Below, piece by piece: positions 3,314-63,642 of a stretch of DNA of 64,000 nucleotides. Position 1 is the stretch's first letter; every line of letters begins with the position of its first letter. The notes under the pieces are model-generated. The model ran no database searches. It was not told the origin of the DNA and saw only the letters and a program-made list of their open reading frames with translations. A program made the position numbers and the translations under genes. Origin of the DNA: Blasia pusilla (lineage: Eukaryota); contig CM114271.1 of assembly GCA_050084515.1 (NCBI GenBank), positions 30,628,001-30,692,000 of the forward strand, in the 5' to 3' direction.

Positions 3314-4520
3314 GATTTCGGAGGAAGCAGAGAAGCTTGCATATAAGAAGGCTAGAAGGGTTGCTTCTCAAAGAAACAGAAAGGCGCTTCAAGATATGCG
3401 ATTTGTAACTCATTCAACGACTTTGTCATCTCCAATGTAAGGATACTTAGCATTATGATTATAGAATGATATCGTAACCATATATTCACACTCTAGATTT
3501 GTTGTGTGACTTTAATATCTTTCATGTTTGTGATGTAGACTTCCAAATCCATCGAACCCGCAATGATTACGTGATATACATCAAATTGTGAGAGGTCAAG
3601 AACAAAAGCGAAGACATGCTAAATTAGTTGAATTGAGATCTATTGAAATTGTTGTGAATGTTCCTTCGATGGAAGAATTACAGCCACCCATCATCGATGG
3701 CTCACCAAACGCAAATACTAGAAGATATTTATTTATGTATAGCATTTCTACTTTTTATTATAATAATAGTTATAATTTTTTTTCGTATTATGACTTTTTT
3801 TTATTCTTTGTTCAGGTTGGTAGCAACACCTTACAATGGAAATCTTCATGCTTCAATAGACACTACATCGTCTCCAATGTATGTTTCATCCACTCATTAA
3901 TTTCTTATTTTTTATTGGTTTTTTTTAATTTGATTTTTTAAATTTAATTATTTTGACTTGATTTTTATTAATATTTTTTTTCTCAGTCTTCCACTTCCGT
4001 CCAACCCTCGGGGATTACATGCTATGCTTCAAGTTGCACGAGCACAAGGCCAGAGAAGAAGACACAATAATTTGGCCCAAGCGAATGTTTATCAATTGTC
4101 TGTGAATCTTCTTCCTAGAGAGGAAGTCGAGGCTATAACTACTAATGACTTTCATACTCAAGCTAATATAAGGTATGCTTTACATACTTTTATTATTGAT
4201 GCTTCCTTCTTGGTCTTAAATTTTTATGAATGATTTCTAATAACAATTTTTTTTTTGCAGGCCAATTATGGTACATCATGAAGTTGAAGCTATTCCAAAC
4301 TCTAGGATTGTGGTCTTACCATCTCCAATGTATATTTCTAAACTATATACTCAAATTTAATATAGATATGTTTGTATGTATATTTATTCTTATTATAATC
4401 ATGTATATTAATTTCTTAACCTATGCTTGCAGTCTTCCAGTTCCTACCAATCCTCTACGATTATCTCACATGCTTCAAGTTGCTCGAGCTGAGGGCCAAA
4501 GAAGAAGACATGCTCATTTG
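3314..4520 (+). repeat. Tandemly repeated exon-intron module (about 440-bp period) in the Helitron N-terminal region
   Basis: Three copies of AG|xLPxPxNP...xQVARxxGQRRRH begin at about 3540, 3988 and 4434. Each is preceded by a small exon ending TCTCCAAT|GTA at 3436, 3878 and 4329. Confidence 0.7.
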
Positions 4521-4775
4521 GATGAAGTACATGAGATTGCACATGTTGGAAATTCGTTGATAAGGAATGATGCCAATGGATCTAATCGTGAAGGCCACAT
4601 GGAAGTGAATGAAGACAATGTACATGCCTCGATTCCAAATGTGGGATCACATTTGGATGAAGTACATGAGATTGCACATGTTTGTGATCCGTTGATAAGG
4701 AGCGATGCCAATACAGCCAATCGTGAAGGCCACATGGAAGACAATGTACATGCCGCGATCCAAATGTGGGATCTA
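4515..4775 (+). repeat. About 135-bp tandem duplication within Helitron coding region
   Basis: HLDEVHEIAHV...REGHME...DNVHA occurs twice in ORF 4230-4787. Confidence 0.9.
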
Positions 4776-4870
4776 GAAGGGTTGTGAACTTGAAAAAGTT
4801 GTTCAATATTGCATGTATTCCTAACTTTGAAGAGAATCACATTCGAATTCTTAGGTTGGGAGATCGTATT

Positions 4871-5440
4871 GATAGTATGACTGGCCATTTTAGTGTTGGA
4901 CTTATGAATGTTGTTTTTCCGACTTGCAATGCTCTACATTGAAAGTGTGAGAGAGTGAAATATACTAGGTTTATAAGCTCGCCTTTTAGTATGTGTTGTG
5001 GGCATGGTAAGATTCAATTACCTTATTTGACAGCTTCACCTTCTATACTAGCAGAATTACTTTCTAGTATGAGTTCAAATAGTCTTCATTTTTTGCGTAA
5101 TGCACGTGCCTATAATAGTGCTCTTCAATTGGCATCTACTGGGGCACATATGACAGAGCAACGAGGCGGTACAAGAAACTTCAGGATTCAAGGTGGTGTA
5201 TATCATTCTATTGGACCTCTTCATGCTGGAAGTGATGCTCCTCCACAATTCGCGCAAATTTATATTCATGATGATGAGCATCAGATGGAACATAAAAGAA
5301 GGATTATGAGTGGAGATTATCGCGATCAATTGAGGCCAGAGATCTTAAGGGGATTACAAGATATGTTACATGCCCATAATCCATATGTGGCTTTATTTTG
5401 AAATATGGCTATTGATCCATGTAATTCTGACTTTCATATT
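4871..5440 (+). pseudogene. Helitron Rep/Helicase, zinc-finger and N-terminal Rep region (upstream of the insertion)
   Basis: GLMNVVFPTCNALH*KCE...FSMCCGHGKIQLP...RAYNSALQLAS...FRIQGGVYHSIGPL...PQFAQIYIHD...LQDMLHAHNPYV. Confidence 0.88.
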
Positions 5441-5924
5441 TGTCACATCTGAGTAGCCGATAGGCCCAGATCTATCGTGGATAGGGCGTAGGAGCCAGCG
5501 GACTATCTTGAGTGTAACTTTGTCCCACGGTGTCGGATGAGGTTGAGGATAGGTCCATTGTGTCAGGAACGTCGTTTCTGACAACTTTCATGTTGAGGTC
5601 TTTTACAGCCGAGTGACTTGTTGACCAGGTCACCCGCCCCTGGTAACTCTTGTGGCTTGAGTTACCAAGGGGAAGGCTATTTTTAGAGGAAGAGCCTTTT
5701 GGCTCTTCCCAACCCTATATAAGAGAGGAAGATGGCTTTCCTAAGCCATCTTTCTCATGTTGGGCCGTTGGAGCACCTCCCTTGTATGTGTGTGGGATAG
5801 GACTAGGGTGCTAGCGTCCGGATTCCTTGATAGCAAAGGGTGGACGAGGCTCGATATGCCGATGTAGATTGAGGAGTGGAGTTTTAGGCCGGGTGTGCCG
5901 TTTTTACAACTCTTTATTTTTACA
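5441..5924 (+). repeat. Terminal repeat block B1 (LTR-like; promoter, R and U5)
   Basis: About 95% identical by eye to 14457-14937. Contains TATATAA and ends ...TTTTACA. Confidence 0.92.
5716..5722 (+). promoter_or_regulatory. TATA box of element 1; predicted TSS about 5747-5748
   Basis: CCTATATAAG within block B, flanked by the hairpins GGAAGAGCC-tttt-GGCTCTTCC and AAGATGGCTT-tcct-AAGCCATCTT. Confidence 0.65.
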
Positions 5925-5935
5925 TGAGAAAGATG
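5925..5935 (+). promoter_or_regulatory. Putative self-priming primer binding site
   Basis: TGAGAAAGATG lies directly after ...TACA and is the reverse complement of CATCTTTCTCA (5747-5757). No TGG-type tRNA PBS is present. Confidence 0.7.
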
Positions 5936-7079
5936 TCAGGGGGCTGGTGGGAATTCGTTGTTTGCAGGTAGGCAAGCGAGTTGCCTTGGTCGGGAGCCCC
6001 TGGAGACGTGTGTGTTGCGGGTGTTTGTCATTTTTATGTTTGGAAGGCCGTGGGCAGAAGCACTGTCCATTTTTCTCAAATTTTGCTGGTACGGATTGAC
6101 GCGGGACAGCAGCCGAGTGTAGTGTGCGGCGGAGCATTGGGTGTACGCGAATGAGGGTGTCGAGAGAGAGAAGAAAAGAGAGTTAGGGCTTGCAGCCGTC
6201 GGGGGCGCTGACGGGCGTTTAGGTTGGCGGGCGCGGACAGACAACGGCAGACAGGCGGCGACGGGAGCTGACAGGCGGCAACGGCGCGGCCTTCCCCCCC
6301 TCCAACGTGGTAGGAGTGGATGTGGTGCAGTTGTAGCGGCAAACGTGGTAGGACGGACGAGGTCGGTCCGGCGAATGTGGTTGCGCATGCATGGGCAACG
6401 TGATGGCAGGGAGGATGTCGACGTGGTGAGTGTCCGACATAGTTGGACAGTGGGCGTGACATGATGTTTTGGAGCGCGATAGGGCATTGCGAGAGTTGAC
6501 GATAGAGGGGCAGTGTGCATGATGCCGACGGGTTGTCCGCATATGTTGACGGAAGGATCGACGTGTTGGTCGAGGAGAGTGTTGTGTTGCGGAGATTGTC
6601 ATATCATATGGAGGAGTGCATGTTGACGGTGCAGCAGGTTGGAGGGCGTGATCAGGTTACCCATTCGAGTCACTTTTCCCGCACTTGTCGTGTGTGATTG
6701 AGAGTGTTGGGTATCGGGTAGTAGCTGGTGCTAGGTGGGTGAAGTGATGGTGACGAGTGTAGATTTTTTTCATGTGTAGCATGTTGGTGGATATACGGCG
6801 GTTGTCGAGTAGGGGTCGCGTGTATGACCCGAGAGAGTGTCGCTAGGTTAGGTGAGTCAATTGGGAGGCTCATGGTGAGCCCGAGTGTTGAGCGTGCGTG
6901 AGGCCGGGTATGTCATCACGGGATTGATGTTAGCATAGGTGAGCTAGTGAGGCGTGTGGGAGACTCTCGGTGAGTTTGAGTGCTTGAGCGGGTGAGACGG
7001 GTTTGTCATCACGGCGTTCTTCCATGGTTTGGAAGAACGGGGTAGTACGAGCAGTAGTAGTGGTGTGACACGGAGTTGA

Positions 7080-8400
7080 GTGAGATACCAAGGGGTTACC
7101 AGTGAGGAGCTCCCTCGACATCCATCCGTGGTTGGATCGTCATCAAAGGACGCTGGGTCTGGTGACGAGATCACAGACAGAGACAGTAGTACTTGGCAGG
7201 AGATAGACGACATGGGCTATCGGGGCATGCGTCGTTTCTCGGGTGTAGTGGGCACCATCGACTTAGATGATTTTATCCAGGAGTTCGACACATGGTGCAA
7301 ATTCCAGGAGATACGGACCCCGACACGGTTCAACCCTTTCATGGCATGGAAGGGGTTGTTCCAGCACTTAGAGGGTCCTCTGATGGATGACTACATGGAG
7401 TTTTGATCACTATATTCATTAGAGATTGATGCTTGGAGGATGTATTGGGCTCCAGGGTATGTGTCCACTATTGGTTGCGAGGCATATGATAGGATTGTGA
7501 GAGGAGAGAGACCCACACCATCAGCCTGGAGACTAGATGGAGAGGAGGGCAGTGAGATAAGCGATGTGGCAGAGACCTCTGGTGGTAGAGGGCCACCCAG
7601 CTTCAGCCCCACAGTGGAGTTCTTCCGACAGTTGGGGAAGGGCTACCAGGGCGTACGCACCGACAAGCTGAAGAGTCTACAGGATTTTCAGCGACGATCG
7701 GGTGAGAGTCTGAGAGAGGCATTCACACGCATGAGGAGGCTGATCATTGGTACGTTTAGAGTGACTGAGGCGCAGTCAGTCTAGTATTGGTACGGGGTTC
7801 TGGACCGAGAACTACGGAGGAGAGTCCGAGATGCGGTGCTGATTCACACAGCGAAGCCCACATTGAAGGTGGTCTTTGAGTTGTCTGAGCGTATTGAGCT
7901 CAACATGAGTGAGGAGCAGGTAGTGACCGCTGAATTTTCTCGAGAGTCGACGGGTCCACGAGCGACGGTGACCCCACAGGTGCCACAGCGAGCACCAGTA
8001 CCACGGGAGCGGGCCAGTGTGCCTAGAGAGCAGGGCGGGTACCATGAGCCTATGAGGCAACGACCCGTACCTACATATGTTGTCCAGCAGGGACCGATGT
8101 GGTCTTGTTGGACGTGTGGAGGGGCCCATAGACAGAGAGACTGCCCACAGCATGGGAGAGGACCACCAACGCCTCCGATTGCTCAGGAGTCACAGAGGAT
8201 GGCCCCACCACAGCACCTGTGTGACCATTGCCACAGATATGGTCACTCTAGGGATAGATGTTTTGACCTTCGCCGAGGGGCACGTCCAGAGGTAGGCTGA
8301 GGGCCTGGGGGCGGTCGTCCTTGAGGAGGTCGGGGAGTTCTTCCTGGACGTGGTGGTAGAGGACCACCACCAGCTAGAGGAGATGGAGCAGGAGCACCAG
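7080..8400 (+). pseudogene. gag of element 1, with two CCHC zinc knuckles
   Basis: RFSGVVGTIDLDDFIQEFDTWC...QRRSGESLREAFTRMRRL, followed by CWTCGGAHRQRDC and CDHCHRYGHSRDRC. Contains in-frame stops. Confidence 0.85.
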
Positions 8401-9068
8401 AGCCGGCACTTCTCTCACGCATCGATCAATTGGAGCAGAGGATTGCGGCCATGACGATGATGCAGCTTAGGGAAGGCACGGAGCTGCGAGCAGCTATTGT
8501 AACTCCAGCTTCTACCTCTTACCCTGACCCGGGTGAGGATCTCGCCAGTATGGGATTTATGTGTAGTGCAGCCCAGGTTGAGGCAGCTGCAGTGGTGACT
8601 CGGGGTGCTGTGAGAGGCACCGAGCCATCGAGAGGTGGAGTAGAGATTGACCCACCAGAGGGGATCGATGGGCGGCAGGCCAAGGTTCCACAGTCGTTCA
8701 CATTGTCCGAGGCACTACACACACCATCGATGGTGCCTCGACGACCAGCGGTGCCTACAGTTCAGGCACCTACGTCGACGTCAAGAGGAGTTGGAGTGAC
8801 AACTCCTATGCCGGCTCGAGTGGAGTCAGTGTCGACCATAGTGTTGGAGGTGGCCACCAAAGTGAGTCAGACTCCACTATTTTCCGCCATAGAGTTGGCG
8901 ACGTTGGGAGTTGGACCACCTGAGGTGTTCTGGTTGGCCGCCACGTTGTGTGAGCGTGGAGAGATGACTGCTTCTTGTTCAGAGGTAGTTGAGGAGGTGG
9001 TGGACTTGCCCTCAGAGCCGGTGCTGGGGACGTTCCCGACATAGTCAGGGCATGCGGCGGCGGCGAAG

Positions 9069-9581
9069 TTGGTAGATATGCCAGCTCGACCGGCCATAGA
9101 GCGAGCAGTGGTGACACCTCGAGTAGTGTTACTGGATAGCCGAGCTGGAGTATTTTGCTTGGTTAGTCCGACGGGGACAATATACCACCCGCAGCGCGTC
9201 CTACTTGATTCGGGAGCGCAACCCTTGATGTTAGGGAAGGCGGCGTGTTTAGCGTTGGGGTTACGGAAGGCCGACATTGAGCCTTGTCCCTTCCAGATAC
9301 AGACCTCGATTGGGGGCGTATCACCCACTCAGTATATGACTCGACAGGAGATTGTTGTTAGAGTCCAGCCAGAGCATGCGACGGATAGTGCTATGGTGCG
9401 CACATATGCAATTACGACACCAGTTGAGTCGTACGATGTGTTGGTGGGGAGTATAGTGTTATATCCCCTAGGATTCATCCTTGAATTCTGGGAGGAGACC
9501 GTTGCTTATCGGCTAGGATGGCGGTCTGGTGACGGCCGGATGAGTCAGTTACCTATGCAGTTTGTGGGAGGAGGTGGTTGA
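9069..9581 (+). pseudogene. Aspartic protease of element 1
   Basis: VLLDSGAQP active site and YDVLVG motif, in the same frame as gag. Confidence 0.9.
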
Positions 9582-9925
9582 TCACGAGGCGAGTCTGTGA
9601 CCACGTTGGCAGCTTTCATAGGTAGTGTTAGCTGGCCAGGAGAGTTGTTGGAGGGAATGCACATGCGGAGGATATCCCAATAGCGGATAGTCCCACGGAG
9701 AGACACGCCATGGCGCGTGTCTCTTCCCATGTTGGCGAGGCCTCTTCACCATTGTGGAGTACGACTCGAGAGCTACAGAGGAGTGTCGACGACCACGTGA
9801 AGCAGGCGTGGAGTCATGTTTTTATCCCAGAGCAGCGAGAGTCACGTGGCAATCGGGCTCTTGGAGTGGAGACGTTGACCCCACTAGATACCACACATGT
9901 TGTGTGGCAGTGCCCTGAGGAGGGT

Positions 9926-10870
9926 GTTAGGGTGTTAGATCTCTTCGGAGGGATTAGCACGGGATTGGCTGCACTATTGCAGGCGGGCATACGAGTGCAT
10001 CAGTACCTTTATGTGGAGAGAGATGAGACCGCGCGGTGAGTATCATTACGTCACGTGGCGAGATTGGTCCACAGGTATCCTGAGTTGTTGCTGATATCTG
10101 CAGTACGAGGATATCAGCATACGCTACCCGCCGACATCTCTTTGGTGGGGGTGCAGGATCTGGATAGAGTTGGCACCATTCATTTGGTGATTGCTGGATG
10201 GCCATGTGAGGGTCATTCATCAGCTGGCCGAGGATTTGGATTGCAGGATCCGAAGTCAGGGATGTTTTGGGAGATGTTGCGAGTATTACAACACTTGCAG
10301 GAGAGTCAGATATGTTCTCCAGCGTACATTTTGGAGAACGTGCCGTTGTTGGGAGACACTCGTGGACGAGTGATGACGAGTGTACATCAGGTGAGGTCCT
10401 GGTTGGGACCTGCTCTGTTGTTAGATGCAGCGAGAGTTGGGTCAGGTGCCCATCTTCCACGACTGTGGTGGATGAACCTGATACCATCAAAGGTACTAAG
10501 TCGAGCATATAGTGGAGTCGAAAGAGCACCACATCTCACAGTGGATGGTATTTTGGGCTCAAGGCGTCGATCTCAGGTGGTGACACGGGATGATAGACCA
10601 CCTTTGGCCATGGCCAATAGGGTGGGGGAGTTGAGGGCAGCCTTACCTACGTTGGTGAGCTTCCCAGCATCCCATGCCTTTCGCCAAGGAGGGCCAGGCA
10701 TTATTTGGGATGAGGTGACCGGAGCATTGGAGGAGCCTACAGCAGATGAGCGCGAGCGCGCCATGGGGTTCACTACCGGTACTACGGCGGTGCCAGGGAT
10801 GACCGAGGCATCCCGGAGACAGGTTTTGGGGCAGGCGATGGACCTCAATTGTCTCACATGGATAGTCAGC
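9926..10870 (+). pseudogene. C5 cytosine DNA methyltransferase domain, DNMT3-like, inside element 1 pol
   Basis: Motifs in canonical order: I VLDLFGGISTG, II YVERD, IV IAGWPCEG, VI YILENV, VIII LLDAARVGSGAHLPRLWWMNL, IX ERERAMGF, X SRRQVLGQAM. One stop at 10037-10039. Confidence 0.93.
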
Positions 10871-11180
10871 CTAGGTGTGGCTAAGCAGAGACGAATGCGA
10901 GTGTCATCCATGCCGTCACGTCCACGAGTTGGACCATTGCCCTCTGTGGTCAATCATGAGGCATTGGCTGGGGACGAGACGAGGAGAGATAGGCACCCAT
11001 GGACTTCCTGGGACGTCATCCGAGCAGAGAGTGCGAAGGCGGCTAGAGTAGCACATGTTCAATTTTTTGGATGTGGAGCATGGTGTAGAAGGTCAGAGTG
11101 GAGTGGTTGTTGCGGAGGTGGCTAGGGTTGCTACATAGCAACCAAAGCCGGAGGTTGCGTCCTCTCCGAGTGAGGTCACG

Positions 11181-12631
11181 ATGGAGACTTGGGAGCCTGT
11201 GATAGGTCTCAAGTTGATAGGAGGAGAGCGACGGCGAGTTCATAGGTTTCTGAGAGGGCATGTCAGTTGTTTTGCCTTCAATATGAGAGACTTGGGTACG
11301 CTGCAGGGTCTCGGGATACGGATTGAGTTGGCTAGTGATACGCCGATCTTTCGTCAACCCTACAGGTATTCTGATATGGAGCGAGTCTTGATTCAGAGCA
11401 GGAGTCAGGACTTGTGGAGTTTTCACATGGGGAGTATGCATCTGCCACAGTCATGCCGGCGAAGAAGGATATGTATGGCAATTGGACGGATAGGCGGATG
11501 TGTGGAGATTACCGTCCTATCAACCGACAGACGAGGTCAGATCGATATGCCATGCCTACTCCTGAGGAGATCTTTGATGCGATAGGGCATGCAAAGATCT
11601 TCAATACTTTAGATCTCCGTGCTGGCTATCATTAGCTTCTTATCAGGTTGGAGGATAGGGAGAAGACAACATTCTGGGGGATGGATTGGTTCGGGAGAGA
11701 TTGCTTGTATCAGTGGCGGTTCTTACCATTTGGGTTGAAGAACGCGCCTGCAGAGTTTCAAAGAGTGATGGATAGGATTCTGGCTGGCTTGGATTTTGTA
11801 CGATGTTACATAGATGATATTCTTATCTTCAGTTCCACGGTTGAGGAGCATGAGCGACACTTGGAGGAGGTGTTTTGGCGATTTCAGTTACATGGACTGA
11901 AGTTACATCCAGGCAAGTGCAGATTCTTTCAAGAGCAGATTGAGTACTTGGGACACACCATATACCCAAGTGGGTTAGGTGTTCAGCAGACGAAGGTAGA
12001 GGCTATTGCGCAGATTCCACGCCCTACAGATGTGAGTCGAGTCCGAGCATTTCTTGGACTGACGAACTTCTATTGACGGTATGTTAAGGGTTTTAGTGCG
12101 ATCACAAAGTCTTTGACCTTGTTGACGAGACTTGATCAGGTTTGGTTGTGGGGAGATGATCAGGAGCGAGCATTTCAAGAGCTCAAGGACAGGTTGATGT
12201 CCTCACCCATTTTACAGAGACCGGTTAGGGGTCGCCCATTCCAGTTACATAAGGATTGGAGCATGTTGGATCTAGGAGCAGTGCTTACTCAGAGGGATGA
12301 CGAGGAGAAGGAGTTCGTTGTGGCTTATGCGAGCCGATCGAACAACATTGCAGAGGCAAAGTACAGCTCCTATGAGGGAGAGTGCTTGGCTGTAGTGTGG
12401 GCCGTGGCACATTTTAGGTGCTATTTATTTGGCAACCCTTTCACACTTATCACCGATCATCAGCCGTTGAGGTGGTTGATGGAGTCCGACAAGCTTACGG
12501 GCAAGCTTGCCCGGTGGGCTATATTACTACAGGAGTATGAGTTTGAGGTGATTCATAGGCCACGTTGGCTTAACCAGGATGCGGATGGGTTGAGTCGTAA
12601 CCCATGTCCGAGTCAGAGAGACGACACATGA
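11181..12631 (+). pseudogene. Reverse transcriptase and RNase H of element 1
   Basis: RRMCGDYRPIN, LDLRAGYH, LPFGLKNAPAEFQ, YIDD, DWSMLDLGAVL, YEGECLAVVWAV, TDHQPL. Confidence 0.95.
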
Positions 12632-12989
12632 GCTCGATGGCACGGAGAGAGTGATGAGGAGATGGTGCCCGGTTGGCATGCATGTGGCTATCTTTGTTGG
12701 TTGACTATGGTAGGTCAGCCACAGGTGATGACTCCAGTGGTGGGGTTGGATGATGAGTCTTTGGATCCGGAGGTTAGTGAGGAGGTGACAGGTGGTCGTG
12801 ATATCCATGACGACGTGGAGGTTGTGGAGTTCTTGCGCACTGGCGTCATTGCGAGTATAGTGAGTGCTAGGGAGTGGGATCGGATCCTACAGAGAGACAA
12901 GAGGTTCAAGTGGGAGGGGACTCACATTTTGCGGGTATGGGGAGATGGTAGGACACGAGTGGTACCTCACCCTTCCCAGCGAGCACGTA

Positions 12990-14100
12990 TAGTGCGACAT
13001 GCCCATGAGGAGTTGGGACATATCGGAGTAAAGCGTACTTACAGCTCACTCTAGGTCCAGTATTGGTGGCGCGGCATGCATACTGGGGTACAGTAGTTTG
13101 TGGCCAGATGTATGGTATGTAACAGAGTGCAAGCATCCTTCAATGCTCCCACTCCGCAGTTACATCCTTTTCCGATTATGGATTTAGGTTATCGGTGGAG
13201 TTTAGACTTTGCGGGACCTTTGCCATTGACAGGACGTCATCATAGGTACGTGTTGGTCATGGTGGAGCATTTCTCCAAGTGGATAGAGTTGGTGGCACTA
13301 CCAAACAAGGCGAGCGAGGGAACAGCTTATGCGTTTCTAGATCGTGTGCTTAGTCACTTTGGTGCATCGGCGGAGGTGTTGACTGACCAGGGTACCGAGT
13401 TGAGGGGAGAGTTTCAGGCCTTGTGTGATCAGGCGCTGATAGATCACCGCACCACGTCCAGAGATCATCCTGAGGCGGATGGGTTGGCGGAGAGAGTGGT
13501 ACATACGGTGAAGAGAGGATTGCGCAAGTATGGCTTGCAGCAGGGACTGTTGAGGGAGTGGGACCTACAATTGCCATGGTTGGCTATGGGTTATCGCTTT
13601 AGTCGGCAGGCATCCTTGGCGTCATTTTCACCGCACTTTTTGCTCTTTGGGAGAGAGCCAGATTTACCTACAGTGATTCGACGTGACATGGTGGAGGTGT
13701 TAGATCTTGATGATCCAGATGTGTGGGTACAAGCATGTTCTCAGAGGGCAGAAGTTTTTCGTAGAGTTATGCCTATGGCCTTTGAGAACTTAGCTATTGC
13801 CCAACATAGAGATACATTGAGGTATGCGACCATTCGTAGAGGAGGTTCTCGTCCAGGGATTAGGAGGCTCCTCTTGGAGATTACGTGTATTTACAGCATG
13901 CGGCACCCACGACGCTAGATGTCATTGCAGGGCGCACGATCCTACGTGTGCGCGAGGTATTACCGACCGGAGTCCTCATGTTGGAGGGACGGGATGGTAT
14001 GGTTTGGAAGGATCATGAGCGCAATTGTGCGCCATGTCATCTTCCGAACGTAGATGGGACGGTGGATCCGAGCTTGGCAGTGGTACTTGCAAGCTTGAGG
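12990..14100 (+). pseudogene. DDE integrase of element 1
   Basis: HHCC (HEELGH...CMVC), WSLDFAGP, LTDQG, DGLAERVV. Confidence 0.93.
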
Positions 14101-14240
14101 TGTATGTTGTGCGGATCTGCGAGGGGTGCAGCCACCATGTTGGTATGTGATGGTTGTTCTCGAGGGTGGCATATGTCATGTCTGACCCCCCTCTTGATGT
14201 GGTTCCCACGGGACGATGGATATGTCCGAGATGTGTATAG
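14101..14240 (+). pseudogene. PHD finger at integrase C-terminus (element 1, frameshifted)
   Basis: CMLC...MLVCDGCSRGWHMSCL...PTGRWICPRC follows the C4HC3 pattern. Confidence 0.88.
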
Positions 14241-14307
14241 GGTAGTAGGTCATGTTAGAAAGATGTGATATTTTCTTTCTAGAGTTGGGAGGATCCAACT
14301 TCCAGCT

Positions 14308-14317
14308 AGGGGGGCGG
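14308..14317 (+). promoter_or_regulatory. Polypurine tract of element 1
   Basis: AGGGGGGCGG lies immediately before block A (TTGTGTGATC). The equivalent in element 2 is GGGGGCGAG at 63527-63535. Confidence 0.65.
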
Positions 14318-14454
14318 TTGTGTGATCTCCATGTATATGTATGAGTTGATTTTTGTACATGTGTGGATCGACCTGTGTGTGGGGAAGATCGGTGTTGTGT
14401 GGTGTACATATGACCAGCGATGTATGTTGTGTAGCGATATGTATGCGCACGACA
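14317..14454 (+). repeat. Repeat block A1 (138 bp, ends GCACGACA)
   Basis: Near-identical to 14938-15075, with 5 differences counted. Confidence 0.92.
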
Positions 14455-14456
14455 GC

Positions 14457-14937
14457 TGTCACATCTGAGTAGCCGATAGGCCCAGATCTATCGTGGATAG
14501 GGCGTAGGAGCCAGCGGACTATCTTGAGTGTTAACTTTGTCCCACGGTGTCAGATGAGGTTGAGGATAGGTCCATTGTGTCAGGAACGTCGTTTCTGACA
14601 ACTTTCATGTTGAGGTCTTTTACAGCCGGGTGACTTGTTGACCAGGTCTCCCGCCCCTGGTAACCTGTGCGTGTAGGTTACCAAGGGTAGGGCTATTTTT
14701 AGGGGAAGAGCCTTTTGGCTCTTCCCAACCCTATATAAGAGAGGAAGATGGATTTCCTAAGCCATCTTTCTCATGTTGGGCCGTTGGAGCACCTCCCTTG
14801 TATGTGTGTGAGATAGGACTAGGGTGCTAGCGTCCGGATTCCTTGATAGCAGAGGGTGGACAAGGCTTGATATGCCGATGAAGATTGAAGAGTGGAGTTT
14901 TAGGCCGGGTGTGCCATTTTTACTACTCTTTGTTTTT
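14457..14937 (+). repeat. Repeat block B2
   Basis: Copy of 5441-5921. It lacks the terminal ACA and joins directly to A2. Confidence 0.92.
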
Positions 14938-15075
14938 GTTGTGTGATCTCCATGTATATGTATGAGCTGATTTTTGTACATGTGTGGATCGACCCGTGTG
15001 TGGGGAAGATCGGTGTTGTGTGGTGTAGATGTGACCAGCGATGTATGTTGTGTAGTGATATGTATGCGCACGACA
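14938..15075 (+). repeat. Repeat block A2
   Basis: Copy of 14317-14454. Its last 21 bp recur exactly at 15364-15384. Confidence 0.92.
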
Positions 15076-15388
15076 TGTAGTTCCAAACGGATTGCTCCCA
15101 AGATCCCAATGGGTTAGCAACAAATATAGAATCGGTGCCTAGGTTCTTTATTGTGTCCCAAAGTGTCGCGCATGCTAAACGTCATTTGGAGCCATACTTA
15201 GTTTAAGTCTAATTGGATTCTAAGATCCAATTCTGGCTGTAGAAGGCGTCCGATAAGTGGAATATAACTTGTATTGGACTATAGTTCCGAACGTCCTTTA
15301 GTTGGTGGTACGTGTTGTTGCGTCTCCCGGAGAGCTCCTTCGGTCGGAAATAGTTGGTCTATTGTGATATGTATGCGCACGACATATT

Positions 15389-42759: not shown

Positions 42760-43195
42760 TCTTGAAGGAGACATGAGATATGAGACGCAAGTAAGGTTGA
42801 GTATTTCATGTATTTATGGTCTTGAAGAAGACATGAGATATGAGACGCAAGTAAGGTGAGTGTTTAATGTGTTAATGGTCTTGTCACGTCTATTAGGATA
42901 GATCAATGAGATCTAGTGGAGCGCCTTCAGAGATACTAGAGAATAGCATGAGGACGTTGAGGATGACCTGCAGAGACCACGAGTAACTTGAAAGAGCAGG
43001 TTTTCCCTTCATTTCAGCTCATTTGGAGCCATATAGAGAAACTTACTATTTGGGGTAAGTTTCCATTTAGAGTATAGTTGAATTTCCACTTTGGAAAATG
43101 ATCCTTGATCCGCTACAGGAGGCCAAGAGCCAAGGAGGTGACCTGTGAGCATAGGTTACCGTAGAGAGGGCTTGAGAGAGGGAAGGGAGTATACC

Positions 43196-43227
<32 letters not shown>

Positions 43228-43615
43228 CTCATTCTTTCTTTGTTGAACCTCTTGGCATGAGGTGGCGGAGCTATGGTCCTCCTTGCCTTGGGTGTGTAAT
43301 CTCTCTCATGTCAAACCAAACCTCTCATTAGGAGAGTGCGTTTGGTTTGACATAAGAGAGAGTGCACACCATGAAGAGCTAAATGTGAGATGTTGATGTG
43401 AGATTTGATCGATTTACAAAGAGAGAATGAGAGATATTGGTACTTCTCGTCTCGTTGTTTGGATGCCATGAGTTAGCATGGGATCGTGCATGTTTGTGTG
43501 TATGTTCGGTGACAGCAATGTATGTTTTGTAACGATGTGTATGCGCATGACAGTCTTAAAGGAGACATGAGATATGAGACGCGAGTAAGGTTGAGTGTTT
43601 AATGTGTTAATAGTC
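42760..43615 (+). repeat. Three about 60-bp tandem repeats; the third is interrupted by the 42882-43552 insertion
   Basis: Unit TCTTGAAGGAGACATGAGATATGAGACGCAAGTAAGGTTGAGT... Confidence 0.85.
42882..43552 (+). mobile_element. Solo terminal-repeat unit (671 bp) with the same termini as element 1
   Basis: Starts TGTCAC and ends CAGCAATGTATGTTTTGTAACGATGTGTATGCGCATGACA, homologous to the block A end. 4-bp TSD GTCT (42878-42881, 43553-43556). Confidence 0.85.
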
Positions 43616-44699
43616 GTGACTCAGGTGACTTGGACCAAGCGCAAACCAAGACTTGGGACTAGTCAAGTGCAAGAAGAGTGGGTTGCTAAAGAGGATGAGA
43701 ACCCAAATTGGACCTTGACTAGTGTTTGGGGTTTTACTGTATGGCGTTGGAAAGCTTATGCAAAGCCGATTCCAACACACTAGAGATCTAGACAAATGCA
43801 TAAGCAAAGATTGAGAAATCGTCCGAAAATGTAGGAAGGATTGTTGGGCTAAGGACCAAAAGGAGCAGCGTAAAAGTACTTTCCCAAAGGTAGGGGGAGG
43901 TCAAAGAACCCTAGCAGTATATATAAGGGAGAGGGTCTGCAAGGGTGCTTGGTACCCACTTTGGAGAGCCATGGGGAAAACCAAGGGAACGGAATAGATC
44001 GAGAGGTTGGCATTTGGGTGCGATCCCCAAGGCAAGTCCAAAGGAATGAATTTTAGAGGTATCCCTTGGATTCCAACCTACGACTCAATTCTTGGCTCTC
44101 GATTAGTGACTCATATGAGGTCCATTGGATAGTTTGGAGCACTTGGCATGCGAGCACCGTTTAACTTATTTAATATGCCTAGACTATCTGGAGAGTGTGT
44201 CCCAAGTCTTGGGAGACTTGCTAGTGTTGGGAAGTGAGGAATTAGGACCTCTAGAGCTTGATGAATGGCGAGAGTTGAGAACTCGGGGAATTGGAAACTT
44301 TGTTGGCTCAAACCAAGACCAATGAGAGTGTCTTTGGGTGTAGATCAGCAAAGTGAGCTTGATCTATTGAACATACACTTCCGAATCACGTGAGATTGAC
44401 ACGCAAGAGGAGTAGACGTACGATATGCATGGTGTTAATCGCCAAGCATTGGGCACCTAAAAGTGGGTGTCATAATTGGAGTTCAGAAAAATTTTGCTCC
44501 AATTTTGTTAGGTGTTGAAACTTGGAGAGTCTATCCCATTTTATATATGTAGATGAGAAAAATTCTCTCATAAGAAGGGATTACCACACTATTCTCAAAT
44601 ACATGAGCAAAAGTATTGATTCATTACAAGAAAGAAGGATGATAAGCTTATGGTGAGAAGACCAACCCAACGTCTTCAAGATTATCATTTATTTCTTAA

Positions 44700-52997: not shown

Positions 52998-54424
52998 TTT
53001 TAACAAGAAATTTTTTTAACTATAGTAATCCACGCATAAACACCCGTGTTTATTTTATCATTAACATTTGTGCAAGGGGGATCCATATTCACTCATATTT
53101 GTGCAAGGGGGATTAAAACCTATGTGGATATATCTCCATTAATGTGTATGCACATCCAAAATATATTTGTAGGAATTCAAGATGTTTTCATTTTATTAAT
53201 CCATGGACCATATTCTCCCCTAAAGCACCTACTAATCAAATTGATTTTCTCGGGCTATATGGGATACTAGATCCCATCTACGAGCACATTTTACAGTGTG
53301 AATGAGGAAAATTTGTAAAATATATTGTGGTTTATAGCCTCAATGGGTTGTAGTAGGGGAGGAGGTTTTTAAGTTCTTTAGGGTATCTACCACCACAAAC
53401 TATAGGGATGGATATAAAGTTTTTGAACGTATGAGTTTGTAGGCTTGGAGCAATTTGAGACATAAGATGATCAAGGTGGTTCATGAATCATATAGATTGG
53501 TCGATCACCAATCTATGGTATTATTGGGGGATAACTTCTTTATTTATAAACATCTTTGCATTTGATATATGGCAATGGGGCAATTAGAAAAAAATTGGTA
53601 GCATATATTCGAATAAATTGGAAAATCACTCAATGACATGTGAATCACACAAGATGTACGTGATCCACTTCTCGTGTGGAAGCTACATCCATGATCAAAC
53701 ACTCTCGGATTGCTTCACTGAAATTTGCACACCTCGTACATCACGAGTTCTCCTATACTCACTCTCAAGCCTTAAGTCAAGCTAGAATCCGAGCGCGCGG
53801 AAAAATTACTCCGGACCCTAATAAGGCTTCAGCTAAATAGCCATGAAACCGCTATATGTACCGTACCACAGAGGCCAGCCCCTACACCACCTCATCCCCA
53901 CCGGGGCGGTCATAAATGTTGAGCAAGCTCGCCTTTCAGGGATCTTCATGTCACTCTTCTAACTAATAGAATTTTAGTCACATAGACAACAACACAACAT
54001 TAGTAGAAAACGGACCATTTTAAACCCATATATTTGACTTGTGTTACTAAGAGTTATTTGAATTACACTAAGTTACTCTAGGACCAATCAATTGACTCGT
54101 GAATTACTCACAAGATAGTTTATTCATAATTAGTGACTAGTGTAAACTTAGAGAGGGAGGAAGGGTTTTGGATCTGGGTGGAATGACCAACCATTACTTA
54201 ATTCCAATACCAATTTGCAGTCATGGAAGGGTTTTTTGACTTCGAACACAAAACCCATATTTTTATTACTTTTCTAGAAGAATATCTTACATGCTACATT
54301 TTTGGATATAGGTTGAATAGGATGAAAGGATATACATGAGGAGGAAAAGAAACTATATAAGTGGAAACTAATGGACCACTGCTTAGGTAATTAAACCTCA
54401 TGATATTTTTCTTTAGGGAGGGTT

Positions 54425-54742
54425 CATACCTTATGTAGGGCCGTAGTGTCTAGGTAGAGATGCGGTTTCATACATAGGGTTGAGGGTTATGCAATTGAGG
54501 GTGACTTTTCCAATAGGGCCCGCTCTTAGGTTGGAGGATATAGTGTGGAGTGCACTCAAAAAACAGTTAGTTCTTTGAGTTGAGCCTGTTGCGTTGGGAG
54601 TTAACCTTGGTAGTGAGAAGAGCTCTTGGCTATGATGGTTCCCGCAAGCTTTGACCTGGATTCTCCCATCGTGGAGTGGGTTTGGCTTGATTGTATGTGA
54701 TTCTATATGTGTTTCATGACTGTAGGTCTTTCACAGATTTCA
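54425..54742 (+). repeat. Block B1 of element 2 (lacks the first about 50 bp)
   Basis: Direct repeat of 63693-64000. The right boundary is inferred from the putative PBS at 54743-54754. Confidence 0.85.
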
Positions 54743-56229
54743 CTCACAGAACTAGAGTAGATCGATGGTAGCTTCGATTGTGGATCAGTAGGATCTGGTT
54801 AGGGTTGATTGTGTACTCAGCCGTGGATGTTTGTGGCTTGTGGCCTATGTTGGAGGTGGGAATCTGGTGCGTGATTGGTTGAGAAAGAAGCGCCTTGCTG
54901 AGAGCTTTGCAACGCGCTTTAGATCGCCAGATTTCGTTAAGGGAGTTGGAAGTTATCAAGGATTGAAGATACTGGTTCGTGTTCGACGGTTTCCTGATGT
55001 AGAGAGCTTGGAGTGCGGAAGCTCTGTTGAAGTTCATCCAGATCGGGTGACAGGTTCCTGTTGCTACTTGTATTGGGATCTTATGTGAAGCTATCTGCTT
55101 GAGTGTGTAGAGTGTTGCGGATTTCTGCAGGCATGAATCTGGGCGGAAGCGCTGTCGGATTTGCAATTCTGGAGATGTATGGACAACAAGTTTGTCTGAT
55201 TTTTATCTTGGAGTACAGAGCTTGGTTGTAGCTGATTTTTTGTAAAGAGATAGCTATGGTGGTCAATTGAATTTTGGTCGAAAAAAAATCAATTTTGGTT
55301 GAGGATTTGTGGAGTAATTGGTGATTGGAATTTCGCGGACTAGCTCAAGGTCTGGCTATGGTGGACAGCAGATCGGAGGGGCTGGTTGGTTGGTGATTTG
55401 TCTGTTGTTGGAGACGCCTATCCCATTGGGGGCGCCCTGGTTGGGCCTCTCTCCATAGCAAAGCATGGCGATAGGGGCATGTCTCAAGCATTTCTCGAGG
55501 CTTCGAGGCAACTCGTGGTAGCTCGGAGCGAGTGGGCGTGAGAGGCGGAGTAAGGAGCAAGGAGCAAGGAGCAAGCTTGCTTGCTTGGGCGTGAGGCAGT
55601 TTTTGCAAGATTTGTGATTTGAGTGTTGCATAACTGGTCATCCATCTTTGGGCTATTATGCCTGGAAGACGCTTAACTGCTGAGTTCTTAACTATGCCAA
55701 TGTACACACTGGTGTAGCTCATTTGGTGTTGTTCGGAGATGTGTTAGGCGCTTTATGCATCTCAGGTTTTTGGTTGATGGATCTCTAGCGCATAGTAGGG
55801 TGTAGCCTCTCCATGCAAGTGATATTTTCAGATGCTACGAGTCCGACTAGCACGTCATCGACCGCGGCGGAGTAGCTATTGCGTTAGAATTGTGTGGTGG
55901 GTTCTGTGGATTTAGGGGGCGCCACGTTTGGTGGATTTTGTTACCTTGATTTCCATTTGCGATTGGAGGGTTGTCGTTGGACTTCCTCTGTTTGGATCCC
56001 CTCCATCGTTGCTTCTTGCTTGGGGCCCATTGTTAGGGATGTTGATTTCCATAGTAGTGTTACTCTTGTGTGCTACCGGTAGTGAGACTGGAGTGATGAC
56101 CAGTAGACCGTGGGAGGCTTCTTGTGGTGATGAAAGGTTAGGTTGCCTACACCCATAGCTATTAGAGCTAGAATAGTACAGCGACATCAACGTCACTTGG
56201 TTACTTAGTGGTGGTAATTTGATGGTGGT

Positions 56230-57582
56230 GTGGCATCGGTGTTGGTCATCACGGAGCTGTCTGGTGGTCTGGTTGGGGACCGTGGTGCGGACAGTGGTGG
56301 TTTTACACGGAGTGAATTGAGGTATCGGCTACCTTTTCCACTTCCGACAGTTGATGAAGAGGAGGACGAGGGTGTTCCAAACACCAAGTCTTCTACGTTG
56401 TTATCGAGTGTTGCAGCTCCATTGATCTGGGACATGGACGGGATATATAGGGCCATGAAGGGCCCAGGACGATACTCGGATGCAGTGGGCACCATTGAGT
56501 TGGAGGACTTCATGCACGAGTTTGATACGTGGTGTGATATGCAGATGTTGCGGAACGCCACGTTGTTTACACCCTTCTTGGCTTGGAAGGGGTTGTTTCA
56601 GCAGTTGGAGGGGCCACCCATGGATGATTACCATGAGTTTAGGAAGGACCATGTTGCTGAGATTGAGGCGTGGAGAAAATATTGGTCTCCAGGTTATGTG
56701 TCTATCACCCATGGTGGTATTGGTAGTAGTGCTACTACTATGCTAGCCAGCCCGACGTTGAGTGGTACGAGTATGAGCCGGAGTGGGGGTACCAATGGAG
56801 GAACCCATGGAGGTACCAGTGGGGGTACTAGTGCCCCACCATCGTTCAGCCCGATTGCAAAGTTCTTCAACAGGTTGAAGAAGAACTATCAGGGAGTGAA
56901 GACACAGAAGTTGAGGAGTCTTCAGGAATTTGAGCGAAAGACTGGTGAGAGTCTTCGTGAGTCATACACTCGTATGCGACGCTTGATTTCACTTACCCAG
57001 GGTGTGACTGAGGCTCAATAAGTCCACTTTTGGTATGGGATCTTGGATAGAGAGTTGCGCCGCAAGGTACGTGATGCTACTCTTATGAGTGATGATTCAC
57101 CCACATTGACCCATGTGTTTGCTCTATCTGAGAAGATTGAGCTTAACATGGTGGAGGAGAGAGTGGTGACATCCGCATTCAATAGGGATACAACTACTAC
57201 TTCTCGTGTTCAGCAGTCCACCTCACAATCTCATAGTAGTGATGGTGGTAGTAGTAGTGGGAGTCGTGGGGGGTACACACGACCTCAGTCAGGTCCTAGA
57301 GGGTCACCTGCGTAGAGACCATTGCCTTCATTTGCTGCCCCGCAGCAAGGACAGTCATGTTGGACATGTGGAGGTGATCATGTTAGGAGGTTTTGTCCCC
57401 AAGAGGATGGGACACGGACTTTGGAGGATGGGCCTCAGTCGGCCACAACTCAGTGTGATCATTGCGGGAGACCAGGTCATCCTCGAGAGCGTTGCTTTGA
57501 TCTTCATCCAGAGTTGAGATCAGGCTGCGGCCGTGGTGGAGTAGCTCCGCGAGGCCGAGGTGGTAGGGATGGTAGAGGTTGA
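56230..57582 (+). pseudogene. gag of element 2
   Basis: GTIELEDFMHEFDTWC, ERKTGESLRESYTRMRRL, CWTCGGDHVRRFC, CDHCGRPGHPRERC. Confidence 0.85.
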
Positions 57583-58241
57583 CCAGTGGTTGGAGAGCCT
57601 ACGGTGGCTACCCCTACCACTACAACAGAGTTAGCTATGGTCGTCGAGATTGAGCTTGATTGGAGCAGAGTTGGCTACTATGGTCGGTATCCAAAGAAAG
57701 AGCGTGTTCGGGAGCAAGGGCTTCCACCTCTTATGGAGGGGATGATCTCTCTTATATGGCGAGTGCAGCACAGGTTGAGGCATCAACTGCAGTTATGAGA
57801 GGAGCCACTCGAGCGTCAGAGCCACGTGGTGCTACTGTGGAGTTGGATCCACAAAGGGGTGAGGCTGGGAGGCAGGCTAGGCTTCCCGAATCATTCTTGT
57901 TGTTTTAGGTGCTTAGGACTCCATCCATGGTTCCTATGCAGCCTATTGAGCCGACAGTGGGGACAAAGGCATCTACATCGCGTGTAGTAGATACGGATGC
58001 AGCATCTAGTGCAGTATTGCGGATGGCAACTTCAGTGTTGGGATCCCCATTGTTTTCGGCCACGGAGCTGATGGCTTTAGGAGTTGATGAGGTGGATGAG
58101 GGTGTTGCGGTGGAGCGACCCTTTTTGTCAGGTGTTGCATTGAGTACCAGTGCTACTTGGCAAGCAACAGCGGCAAAGATGGATGCATTACCAGCTTGAC
58201 GAGCCATTGATCGTGAGAGGCTTACACCTGGTGTATGTAAG

Positions 58242-58691
58242 TTGGACAACCAGAGTGGGATATTCCGATTGGTGAGTCCTATAGGTCAGGTGTATAGACC
58301 AGATAGAGTCTTGTTAGACTCTGGCGCCCAACCTTTGATGTTGGGAAAGGCGGCATGTATTGGTTTGGGTATTCGGAGGTCAGAGCTTGAGCCTTGCCCA
58401 TTCCAGATTCAAACATCACTTGGAGGAGCCAAGGATAGGTCTCAATTCATGACACGGGAGAAGTTGTCTCTACAGTTGAGACCAAATCATGCGACTGATA
58501 GCTCTCGGTTGGGAGTACCTGTAGTGGTCACATCAGCCGAGTCGTATGATGTACTACTTGGAGGAGCAGTATTGTATCCGATGGGTTTTCAGATGGACTA
58601 CTGGACTGAGACAGCGTCTTATAGACCTGGTTGGCAGTCCGGGGATGGACGTATGAGCCAGGTTCCTGTGAGATTTATTTATGGGGCTTGA
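58242..58691 (+). pseudogene. Aspartic protease of element 2
   Basis: VLLDSGAQP and YDVLLG. Confidence 0.9.
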
Positions 58692-59045
58692 CCAAGAGGG
58701 TCTTCCCCAACGGTGTTAGCATCTGTGGCTGGTTTTAGTGGAATAGTCACTTGGCCAGGAGACTTTTTGGAGGGTAATGTTTCTGCTATGGATTCTCCTG
58801 TGCATGAGGAGGTAAAGGAGGTCCCTAGTTTTGCAGTAGTGGCATCCTCATCGTTGGATGTGCCACTTTGGAGTTCAGGCGGTGCACTACGGCAAGAGGC
58901 TGATCGCCTAGTGTAGGAGGCTTGGTGTGAGGCTGTTATACCTCACGAGGAAGAGGAGGCCCCACGGCGGACTCCTACTTCTGGTCCAGTTGGGTTATCC
59001 CCTTTGGATACTACACCCATTGTATGGCAGTATCCGCCAAAGGGC

Positions 59046-59990
59046 ATTTTTGTGCTAGATCTCTTTGGTAGGATTAGCACTAGTTTGGCTGCAGTGTTGC
59101 AAACCGGTATTCCTGTGCAGAGATACGTGTATGTGGAGCGAGATGAGACGGCCCAAAGAGTCTCATCCCGACATATGGGTCAGTTGATGCGGAGATATCC
59201 TCAGTTGTTGCCGCCATCAACTATTCGTGGGTACCAGCGTGCTTTGCCGTCACACATTGCATTGTTGGAGGCGCAAGATCTTGAGAGGGTTGGTCCTGTG
59301 GATTTGGTGATTGCTGGATGGCCATGTCAGGGTCATACACGTGCTGGTCGTGGTGAGGGATTACACGACCCTAGGTCTCGATTGTTTTGGGAGATGTTAC
59401 GGGTGTTACGACATCTTCGGGTTCATCAGGCTCGTGCTCCAACTTACATTCTGGAGAATGTTCCATTGTTGGGTGACACTCAGACCCAGATGATGGCGAG
59501 TGTTCATGAGGTGCGGTCTTGGATTGTACCAGCGGTGTTGTTGGATGCAGCGCGAGTTGGCTCGCGTTCACATCGTCCACGCTTGTGGTGGAGAAACTTG
59601 TTGCCTAGGGAGGTTCTACGTCGAGCATATGATGCAGTGCAGCGGGATTCTTGCCTTACAGTGGATAGTATCTTGGATACTGGGCGACTTTCTCAGGTGG
59701 TGAGGGTTATTGATCCGTCACCCATGGTAGTGGTGAACCGTGTGGGCCAGCCTAGGATGGCACTATGTAGATTTCTGAGTTTTCCCTCGTCACATGCCTA
59801 CAGGGAAGGTGGTTCCGGGCTTGTATGGGATTCTCATGTGCGACAGTTGGTGGAGCTTAACGCTGATGAGAGAGAGCGTGCGATGGGATTTGCTATTGGT
59901 GTGATAGCGGTTGCTTCCATTTCTGAGGCTTCAGGACGTCATGTGTTGGGTCAAGCCATGGACCTGAATTTTTTGACTTGGATTTTGAGT
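59046..59990 (+). CDS. DNMT3-like C5 cytosine methyltransferase domain of element 2 (no stop within the domain; surrounding polyprotein disrupted)
   Basis: VLDLFGRISTS, YVERD, DLVIAGWPCQG, YILENV, LLDAARVGSRSHRPRLWWRNL, ERERAMGF, GRHVLGQAM. Same frame as PR and RT. Confidence 0.92.
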
Positions 59991-60245
59991 CTTGGTATGG
60001 CCGAGTAGCGTCGACTTCGGACTATGTCTATGGGTCTTCCACCCCTTGTGATGAGCTCGATGGCTACCGGGACGGTAGAGACATCGGCAAGGGGCGAGGA
60101 GAATAGTATTTTGCATCCTTGGAGTAAATGGGATGTAATGGCTGGGAATGTGGAGTTGGTTGCTCATGTTGGTTGAGAAGTTATTTGCTTAGATGATGGT
60201 GTAGCTAAGGGTGTACCATCTTATGAGGGGGTTATCTAGTAGCCA

Positions 60246-61730: not shown

Positions 61731-62109
61731 AGGATGCAACTGGGGCTAGATGGCATGGCGAGGTTGATGAAGAGATGGTGCCAGGTTGGCATGCATCCGC
61801 CTTTTTATGTTGGTTAGGGGTGGACTCTAGTATGGAGGAAAAAATGACATCTTACTCTAGTCAGAGGGTAGATGGCCAGCCTTCAGATCCTAAGGTTGGA
61901 GATGGTGGTACGGATCAGCATGATATTCATGATGATCCGTTGGTGTTGGAGTTCCTACGGACCAGTAGGATGCCAGGCATAGTGAGTGCCAAGGAGCGAG
62001 ACCGTGTTCTTCAACGTGCTAAGAGGTATCGATTGGAGGGAACACATATTCTCCGTGTGTGGGAGGATGGTAGAGTACGAGTAGTGCCACATTTGGCTTA
62101 GAGAGAGCG

Positions 62110-63361: not shown

Positions 63362-63535
63362 AAGAGGTAGATGACTTGATCTTTGCATGATATGGATTAC
63401 AGATGTGCGACGAACGATGGGGCAATCTAGTACCCGGCCTTCTGATTCGTGCACCCACGAAGGTGTATAGCATGTAGTAGATGTATAGGGCTACTTGGGA
63501 GTTAGAGGGACCTAACCGCCAGTTATGGGGGCGAG

Positions 63536-63640
63536 TTGTGGTACAGTTGTGTTTGTGTATGCTCTCGTCTATGTTATGTATGTATGTGAGTATGGTATGT
63601 CAGCGATGTATGTTGTATGACGATGTGGATTCACACGACA
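63536..63640 (+). repeat. Block A of element 2
   Basis: Follows the PPT-like GGGGGCGAG and ends CAGCGATGTATGTTGTATGACGATGTGGATTCACACGACA, then AC-TGTCA. Confidence 0.75.
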
Positions 63641-63642
63641 AC

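Follow-up and report, generated by a model that had tools for sequence, protein, structure and literature searches.

How does a Ty3/Gypsy retrotransposon that encodes a DDE integrase come to lie between repeats that are split and permuted, an arrangement typical of elements with a tyrosine recombinase? The question is raised by an element (element 1) at positions 5441-15384 of a 64,000-nucleotide stretch of Blasia pusilla DNA (GenBank assembly GCA_050084515.1, contig CM114271.1, positions 30,628,001 to 30,692,000 of the forward strand). This stretch is referred to here as the window, and coordinates are positions within it. An original prediction, made from the letters of the window, described two repeats, B and A, in the order B-interior-A-B-A, and proposed that the element had integrated through an internal palindrome. 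The observation was confirmed, while the interpretation was partly supported, with three corrections that concern a trinucleotide ACA, the variability of one junction and an additional segment, X. The split-repeat architecture is real and unusual, though already recorded. We hold with high confidence that the layout B-interior-polypurine tract (PPT)-A-NN-B-A, where NN is a 2-bp spacer, has been demonstrated, together with its ends and its spread through the family.

The repeats and boundaries of the insertion are as follows.

5437-5440, plus strand: left copy of the 4-bp target-site duplication, TATT (from the sequence; Helitron proteins close over the insertion).
5441-5921, plus strand: B1, the left terminal repeat, which starts TGTC and contains a TATA box and a putative transcript start (repeat comparison).
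14317-14454, plus strand: A1, which ends GACA (repeat comparison).
14455-14456, plus strand: GC, the 2-bp spacer at the centre of the GACA-GC-TGTC inverted repeat.
14457-14937, plus strand: B2 (repeat comparison).
14938-15075, plus strand: A2, which abuts the end of B2 directly (U5/U3-type junction at 14937/14938).
15076-15363, plus strand: segment X, which starts TGTAG and lies inside the insertion (within the Helitron gap).
15364-15384, plus strand: a third, partial A end, which ends GACA and is the true right terminus.
15385-15388, plus strand: right copy of the target-site duplication, TATT (from the sequence; Helitron protein matches).

B1 and B2 were 94.8% identical over 482 columns, and A1 and A2 were 96.4% identical over 138 nt. 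The joint of A1 and B2 forms a 10-nt palindrome, GACAGCTGTC (GACA-GC-TGTC), at 14451-14460. The repeats and the palindrome thus lie where they had been predicted, except that the end of B1 is corrected to 5921. Split direct repeats are present in the order B-interior-A-NN-B-A. A conventional Ty3/Gypsy element carries the same complete TG...CA long terminal repeat (LTR) at both ends; here the left end is a B and the right end an A. No copy of A was found upstream of B1, and the unit A-NN-B, which reverse transcription would define, is complete at one place only in element 1, 14317-14937. The layout is less clean than had been proposed, in that the 288-nt segment X precedes the true right end, where 21 nt (15364-15384) are identical to the end of A2. 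Segment X starts with TGTAG immediately 3' of the GACA of A2 and finishes in an A end; outside this shared A end, it showed no similarity to the rest of the window or to a solo B-A unit described below.

The boundaries of the insertion were located by an empty-site test, in which 120 longer homologues of the Helitron protein encoded in the flanks were aligned to the window. The right flank corresponds to the Helitron Rep domain (PF14214, Pfam). High-scoring segment pairs in the two flank regions were obtained for 119 of the 120 homologues, and 97 matched both flanks, in frame 2. When 5441-15388 was excised, 82 of these 97 became contiguous within 5 residues; for one homologue (P0107), the match stops at 5440 and restarts at 15389, at the same residue. 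The right end does not lie at A2, as ~104 extra codons would then be host sequence, which they are not. Closure of the Helitron frame over the gap therefore indicates that 5441-15384 is a single insertion with a 4-bp duplication, 15076-15363 included. The insertion has the ends TGTC...GACA, with TATT at both flanks, and so the predicted combination of a B start, an A-type end and a 4-bp duplication was upheld. At 5399, where the left Helitron frame has a stop, most reads from other copies of the Helitron carry a C.

The spread of this layout through the family was assessed with raw whole-genome reads of the same organism (run X21, ~1 in 100 of the run). Reads were aligned to window positions 5300-14456, which hold one B and one A, so that repeat junctions appear as split reads. 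With short reads, the layout around a given junction cannot be told. All counts of joints and loose ends are among those listed; 150 more joints and more than 4000 more loose ends exist. Summed depth was ~900-1000 in the interior, ~1750 in B (~1.8 times the interior), and ~1775 in the last bin, which comprises the end of the interior and A. By comparison, depth in the Helitron flank was ~98, the Gypsy family being ~10 times deeper. B was joined by its end to the start of A in 342 reads, at 5921 to 14317, and in 45 more as four near variants (~387 reads). The reverse joint, in which A ends and B starts, was found in 372 reads, with the spacer GC in 166, AC in 84, GT in 73, AT in 25, and, in 24, GC followed by a B whose start is a TATC variant. 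The spacers differ by transitions of the kind that methylation at a CHG site would be expected to cause, and C>T and G>A dominate the differences overall too.

The approximately equal counts of the two junctions, together with a depth in B about twice that of the interior, fit the order B-interior-A-NN-B-A. Conventional LTRs of the form A-NN-B do not fit, since such LTRs give no B-to-A joints, and neither do LTRs of the form B-A, since these give no A-to-B joints. Nor is this a chance pattern, as the two junctions recur, in raw reads, in hundreds of family copies. In run X1, the 56 records that overhang A at its start read into the end of B (agreement 0.93) and not into random flanks, and both junctions also occur in contigs of runs X1, X3 and X6, the last of which bears a second organism label. 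The original prediction had named conventional LTRs in most copies as the result that would speak against it. The reads gave instead near parity of the two junctions (387 versus 372), and contigs running off the start of A led into the end of B. The same prediction expected B-to-A junctions to vary, and in this it failed: 342 of ~387 reads share one junction.

Two further units in the window bear on the architecture.

42882-43552, plus strand: solo B-A unit of a related family, 671 nt, TGTCAC...ATGACA, with a GTCT duplication at 42878-42881 and 43553-43556.
54421-64000, plus strand: element 2, a relative ~70% identical in pol, in which the 5' B' is truncated and which runs off the window.

At the 3' end of element 2, the order is a G-run PPT, A' (63535-63640), AC, and B' from 63643, starting TGTCAT. 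The left end is uninformative because the 5' B' is truncated; no A' was found before or after this 5' B'. Segment 42882-43552 is a solo B-A with its own target duplication. Its start, TGTCACGTC, is what follows an A end and AC in thousands of reads of a more abundant sister family. It ends with GCGCATGACA, and the bases preceding this match the read consensus for the A of the sister family. The unit lies inside a ~60-bp tandem repeat (42760-42881 and 43553-43618), and its removal restores the junction between repeat units. A solo B-A with the same TG...CA ends is expected exactly from recombination between B1 and B2 in a split-repeat element.

The sister family, more abundant in the reads than that of element 1, shares with it just the last ~40 nt of A, and 2342 reads break before 14415/14418. 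A (GA)n run at 43200-43228, within the solo unit, matches a long (GA)n tract near 584-776.

The boundaries of the repeats were then compared with the sites at which reverse transcription would be primed.

5747-5760, plus strand: 14-nt arm in B, putative RNA 5' end and self-primer, with a predicted start (complementary to 5922-5935).
5922-5935, plus strand: putative Tf1-like self-priming primer-binding site, beginning at the first base after the B repeat.
14304-14316, plus strand: polypurine-tract-like G-run directly 5' of A1, conserved in element 2, with a putative PPT function.

Positions 5922-5935 are a perfect 14-nt reverse complement of 5747-5760, and a TATA box lies in B1 at 5716-5722, 31 nt upstream of the latter arm. 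By our own estimate, ~0.001 such 14-nt pairs would be expected by chance in 660 nt. In self-priming of the Tf1 type, the RNA folds back so that its initial bases pair with the primer site, and the pair found here is arranged accordingly. No tRNA-type primer site was recognised after B1 by eye, no tRNA comparison having been run. The A repeat begins at the base following the G-run, and the last base of the B repeat, 5921, immediately precedes the putative primer site. With the PPT abutting A and the self-priming site abutting B, the LTR expected from reverse transcription is A-NN-B. This unit has the outer ends GTTGTG... and ...TTTATTTTT, the latter without CA, and the TGTC/GACA inverted pair sits in mid-unit. 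These data suggest that the integrase acts at a site inside the repeat, and not at the repeat ends. The last ~40 nt of A (14415-14454) are conserved across related families while the remainder diverges, which suggests a conserved recognition sequence at the right end of A.

The coincidence of repeat boundaries with priming sites would make the B-to-A joint a precise U5/U3 junction between LTRs, with nothing lost or added. The likeness of this joint to an LTR-LTR junction, to which the original prediction had pointed, is thereby strengthened, as A begins right after the G-run PPT and B ends at the primer site. The accompanying claim that B2 had lost ACA at the joint does not stand: ACA at 5922-5924 forms the first 3 nt of the putative 14-nt primer site, and is therefore not a loss from B2.

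The coding content of the interior is as follows.

5936-7220, plus strand: 5' untranslated leader; the 5925-6523 part is variable or subfamily-specific, as judged by low read depth.
7221-9656, plus strand: gag-like region with in-frame stops and a frameshift (tblastn with liverwort proteins, 43-48% identity).
9656-11044, plus strand: cytosine-5 DNA methyltransferase (DNMT) region, upstream of the reverse transcriptase (PF00145, E 5e-8; liverwort proteins, 59-60% identity).
11175-12631, plus strand: reverse transcriptase and RNase H (PF00078, PF17917, PF17919).
12632-14268, plus strand: integrase, with H2C2 zinc finger and rve core, and a C-terminal PHD finger (PF17921, PF00665, PF00628).

The Pol order, reverse transcriptase, RNase H and DDE integrase, colinear with that of homologues, is a Ty3/Gypsy feature. 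No tyrosine recombinase (PF00589) was found in the 12 open reading frames (ORFs) of the element at E ≤ 0.01, or in 7 homologues. The description of the element as an integrase-encoding Gypsy is thus sustained. The gag-like region gave no Pfam match over 7221-9656 and matches the N-terminal, gag-side part of the liverwort proteins; the PF00145 match spans 10040-11125. A DNMT inside the Gypsy polyprotein region is also found in liverwort and other homologues. The closest proteins are liverwort-named, at 60-67% identity, and a moss protein is next at 51%, so that the host is, on protein similarity, probably a bryophyte; the element is also present in air metagenomes. The frame is broken by many stops, so this copy is dead. 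The element is an old, degenerate copy of a high-copy Ty3/Gypsy family of the Gypsy-DNMT3 type, and the family encodes gag, a cytosine DNA methyltransferase, reverse transcriptase, RNase H, a DDE integrase and a PHD finger.

How the integrated form arises is best accounted for by a model with a circle and a cut at the internal CA-NN-TG, the chances of which we judge to be close to evenly balanced. Reverse transcription would build A-NN-B LTRs, whose outer ends lack the TG...CA used by integrases. This product would first be closed head to tail, in the manner of a two-LTR circle, and would then be cut by the integrase after CA, on both strands, at the internal CA-NN-TG inverted repeat of the LTR beside the primer site. 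Such a cut would release a permuted linear B...A whose CA-3'OH ends are recessed behind 2-nt 5' overhangs. Insertion of these ends by the usual strand transfer would yield B-interior-A-NN-B-A, in which the last B and A meet at the LTR-LTR junction, with a 4-bp duplication. The cutting chemistry has precedent: in the relevant passages of the retroviral literature, the integrases of prototype foamy virus and HIV-1 are described as cutting the palindromic LTR-LTR junction of two-LTR circles.

Several points weigh against this model, or against the structural reading on which it is built. The circle, its cleavage product and extrachromosomal DNA have not been observed, and short reads cannot separate the A-NN-B of a circle from an internal one. 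The near-uniform B-to-A junction fits precise blunt joining, and fits a templated process equally well. A random choice between the two identical sites in a circle would also give B-A-NN-B-interior-A and B-interior-A, neither of which occurs in the window. Both informative 3' parts, those of elements 1 and 2, have the layout in which A-NN-B follows the interior, and the B-to-interior depth ratio of ~1.8 leaves little room for B-interior-A copies.

Other such points concern the ends and the priming sites. The ~600 nt after B1 (5925-6523) are thinly covered, with a summed depth of ~335 and then ~75 (8-35% of the interior), so that the reads do not bear out a primer site shared throughout the family. 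In the 5' part of element 2, neither a self-priming pair nor a TATA box was found. The transcript start, near 5747, is a prediction. The loose ends listed do not include those at which a read passes between B, at its start, and the flanks. Finally, the right end of element 1 is a partial A copy and not A2, with 288 unexplained nt between; this segment could be filler DNA, or else a short unit of the B-A type that came from a further family and was attached ahead of integration.

The main rival to the circle-and-cut model is direct reverse transcription of the permuted linear DNA, B...A, with no circle, such that the integrase acts on ordinary ends. Extra template jumps would be required, or else plus-strand synthesis would be primed a second time, at the conserved A end, by analogy with DIRS/PAT elements, in which full ends are rebuilt from internal repeat junctions. 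This pathway would account for the uniform B-to-A junction and for the single layout in the window, and it agrees with conservation of the last ~40 nt of A across families whose A repeats have otherwise diverged. Published passages on DIRS-1 likewise describe an internal complementary region that is needed to complete retrotransposition, and cDNA that is mostly linear. However, A does not end in a polypurine stretch, none of its copies is followed by a primer site, and no worked-out series of jumps yields a terminal A. The G-run before A and the self-priming site after B are, moreover, placed as the standard LTR cycle needs, and they mark the repeat boundaries. We consider this pathway unlikely, yet it is the alternative that survives best.

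Alternatively, the true LTR could be a conventional TG...CA unit of the form B-A, in which case the 5' LTR would have lost its A and A1 would be an extra internal copy. The related solo unit is indeed a B-A with a target duplication, and the family reads show the ~600 nt that follow B1 to be atypical. Such an LTR predicts two B-to-A junctions for each A-to-B junction, however, and the reads gave near parity. No base separates the B repeat from the 14-nt complement that forms the putative primer site, the polypurine tract precedes A and not B, and element 2 has no A' on either side of its 5' B'. Together these make a conventional B-A LTR highly improbable.

A one-off event, whether local rearrangement, nested insertion, assembly error or passive multiplication of one rearranged copy inside the Helitron, is barely credible: this copy does carry an extra segment (15076-15363) and does lie inside a repeated Helitron, but each of the two junctions is seen in hundreds of raw reads and recurs in the contigs of three further runs, the Gypsy family is far deeper than the Helitron flank, and the same junction or the same ends appear, in other contexts, in two related families of the window.

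The circle-and-cut model was compared with known systems that share parts of it. Elements of the IS3/IS911 type integrate circles through abutted ends with a short spacer, which are used together by a DDE enzyme. These are, however, bacterial DNA transposons, with no reverse transcription and no LTRs. PAT, Ngaro and DIRS elements (A1-internal-B1-A2-B2) have the same formal arrangement of two repeat pairs, and the internal A-NN-B here is likewise the joint that the two termini would form. Elements of that type have a tyrosine recombinase and no target duplication, according to the part of the source that deals with them (PMC8969392), whereas the element described here has a DDE integrase, TG...CA ends and 4-bp duplications (TATT, and GTCT in the solo unit). 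With foamy virus and HIV-1 it would share a DDE integrase that cuts an internal CA...TG palindrome in a circle, giving 3'-processed ends. In those viruses, as presented in the passages cited above, the palindrome is the junction of LTR ends and the provirus is conventional, whereas here the site lies inside the LTR that reverse transcription would define and the inserted copy is permuted.

In its putative priming, the element would resemble Tf1/sushi and plant Tcn1 elements, which in the published passages have an LTR-adjacent primer site that pairs with LTR sequence closely downstream of the TATA box. Neumann et al. (2019) predict that plant elements of the Tcn1 clade prime themselves in this way. 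The same passages give those elements conventional LTRs and, in most, a chromodomain, and in this they differ.

The closest precedent is KnitGypsy-Dnmt3 of Klebsormidium nitens, for which the legend of Fig. 4c in de Mendoza et al. 2018 (PMC5890265) states a DIRS-type repeat arrangement with Gypsy domains. From that description, it is like the present element in having the Gypsy domain set, with a DNMT inside Pol, and DIRS-like repeats. It differs in its Klebsormidium host, the element described here being closest to liverwort and moss proteins. The passages of PMC5890265 that concern KnitGypsy-Dnmt3 give no ends, target duplication, priming sites or mechanism. The layout is therefore already in print, in one figure legend, to which the figure and supplements may add, and novelty of the layout for Gypsy elements is not supported. 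The name 'Gypsy-DNMT3' is applied to streptophyte elements in the accessible text of a 2026 preprint. A literature search on Gypsy-DNMT3, KnitGypsy and DIRS-like Gypsy repeats turned up only these two sources. At the level of titles, abstracts or passages, a search on split direct repeats, integrase and gypsy returned none evidently on a Gypsy with such repeats, and one on Marchantia and liverworts found nothing on split-repeat Gypsy architecture. What is new here is that such elements extend to a bryophyte-type host, that reads prove the layout to be the norm of its family, that the ends are TG...CA and flanked by target duplications, and that the repeat boundaries coincide with priming sites.

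Two-LTR circles are textbook dead ends, and their productive use by integrase has been debated since the 1980s. The present family offers a test case, in that its integrated ends fall at an inverted repeat in mid-LTR and the outer LTR ends lack the CA that integrase needs. The circle-and-cut mechanism is attractive and testable, and unproven. Should it hold, it would be a natural case of a required joined-end intermediate, and would explain how a Gypsy element can look like DIRS without a tyrosine recombinase. Its extension to the whole Gypsy-DNMT3 lineage, from charophytes to bryophytes, is offered tentatively, as one that we would sooner doubt than assert: the ends of the reverse-transcribed DNA would be joined first, and the integrase would open a CA-NN-TG site inside U3. 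In that event every provirus would be a circular permutation with split repeats, and the lineage would have an obligatory two-LTR-circle intermediate in a eukaryotic retroelement, independent of the tyrosine-recombinase elements. In practice, elements of this kind, of which this genome holds many, will be annotated wrongly by LTR finders that look for identical repeats at the two ends.

Several minor observations were made on the element and its relatives. The DNMT precedes the reverse transcriptase in the element and in the liverwort proteins, and in more distant homologues the order is reverse transcriptase, RNase H, DNMT, integrase and PHD finger (proteins compared: P0158, P0167 and P0170). 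The same module thus occupies two places among related Gypsy elements. A scan of genome contigs yielded one of 10,362 nt (L013; ORF at 3595-9516) that encodes a full distant homologue, a Gypsy polyprotein of eukaryotic type with DNMT and PHD finger. No terminal or split repeats of at least 30 nt were found in it; the assembly probably stops at the repeats, so that it is uninformative on architecture. The contig is filed under a bacterial metagenome-assembled genome and is most likely a misbinned eukaryotic contig. Viral contigs, scanned with one homologue and with a 13-protein alignment, gave no relative. Twelve metagenome loci that matched a 19-nt word from the end of A were rejected as chance matches in unrelated DNA, sharing just 20-21 nt with the window.

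In the thinly covered leader, three minus-strand ORFs overlap one another (5936-6656). In the left part of the Helitron frame (3536-4746), there are internal direct repeats, with 92-nt units ~447 nt apart and 97-nt units 135 nt apart, which indicates that the Helitron region upstream of the Rep domain is modular.

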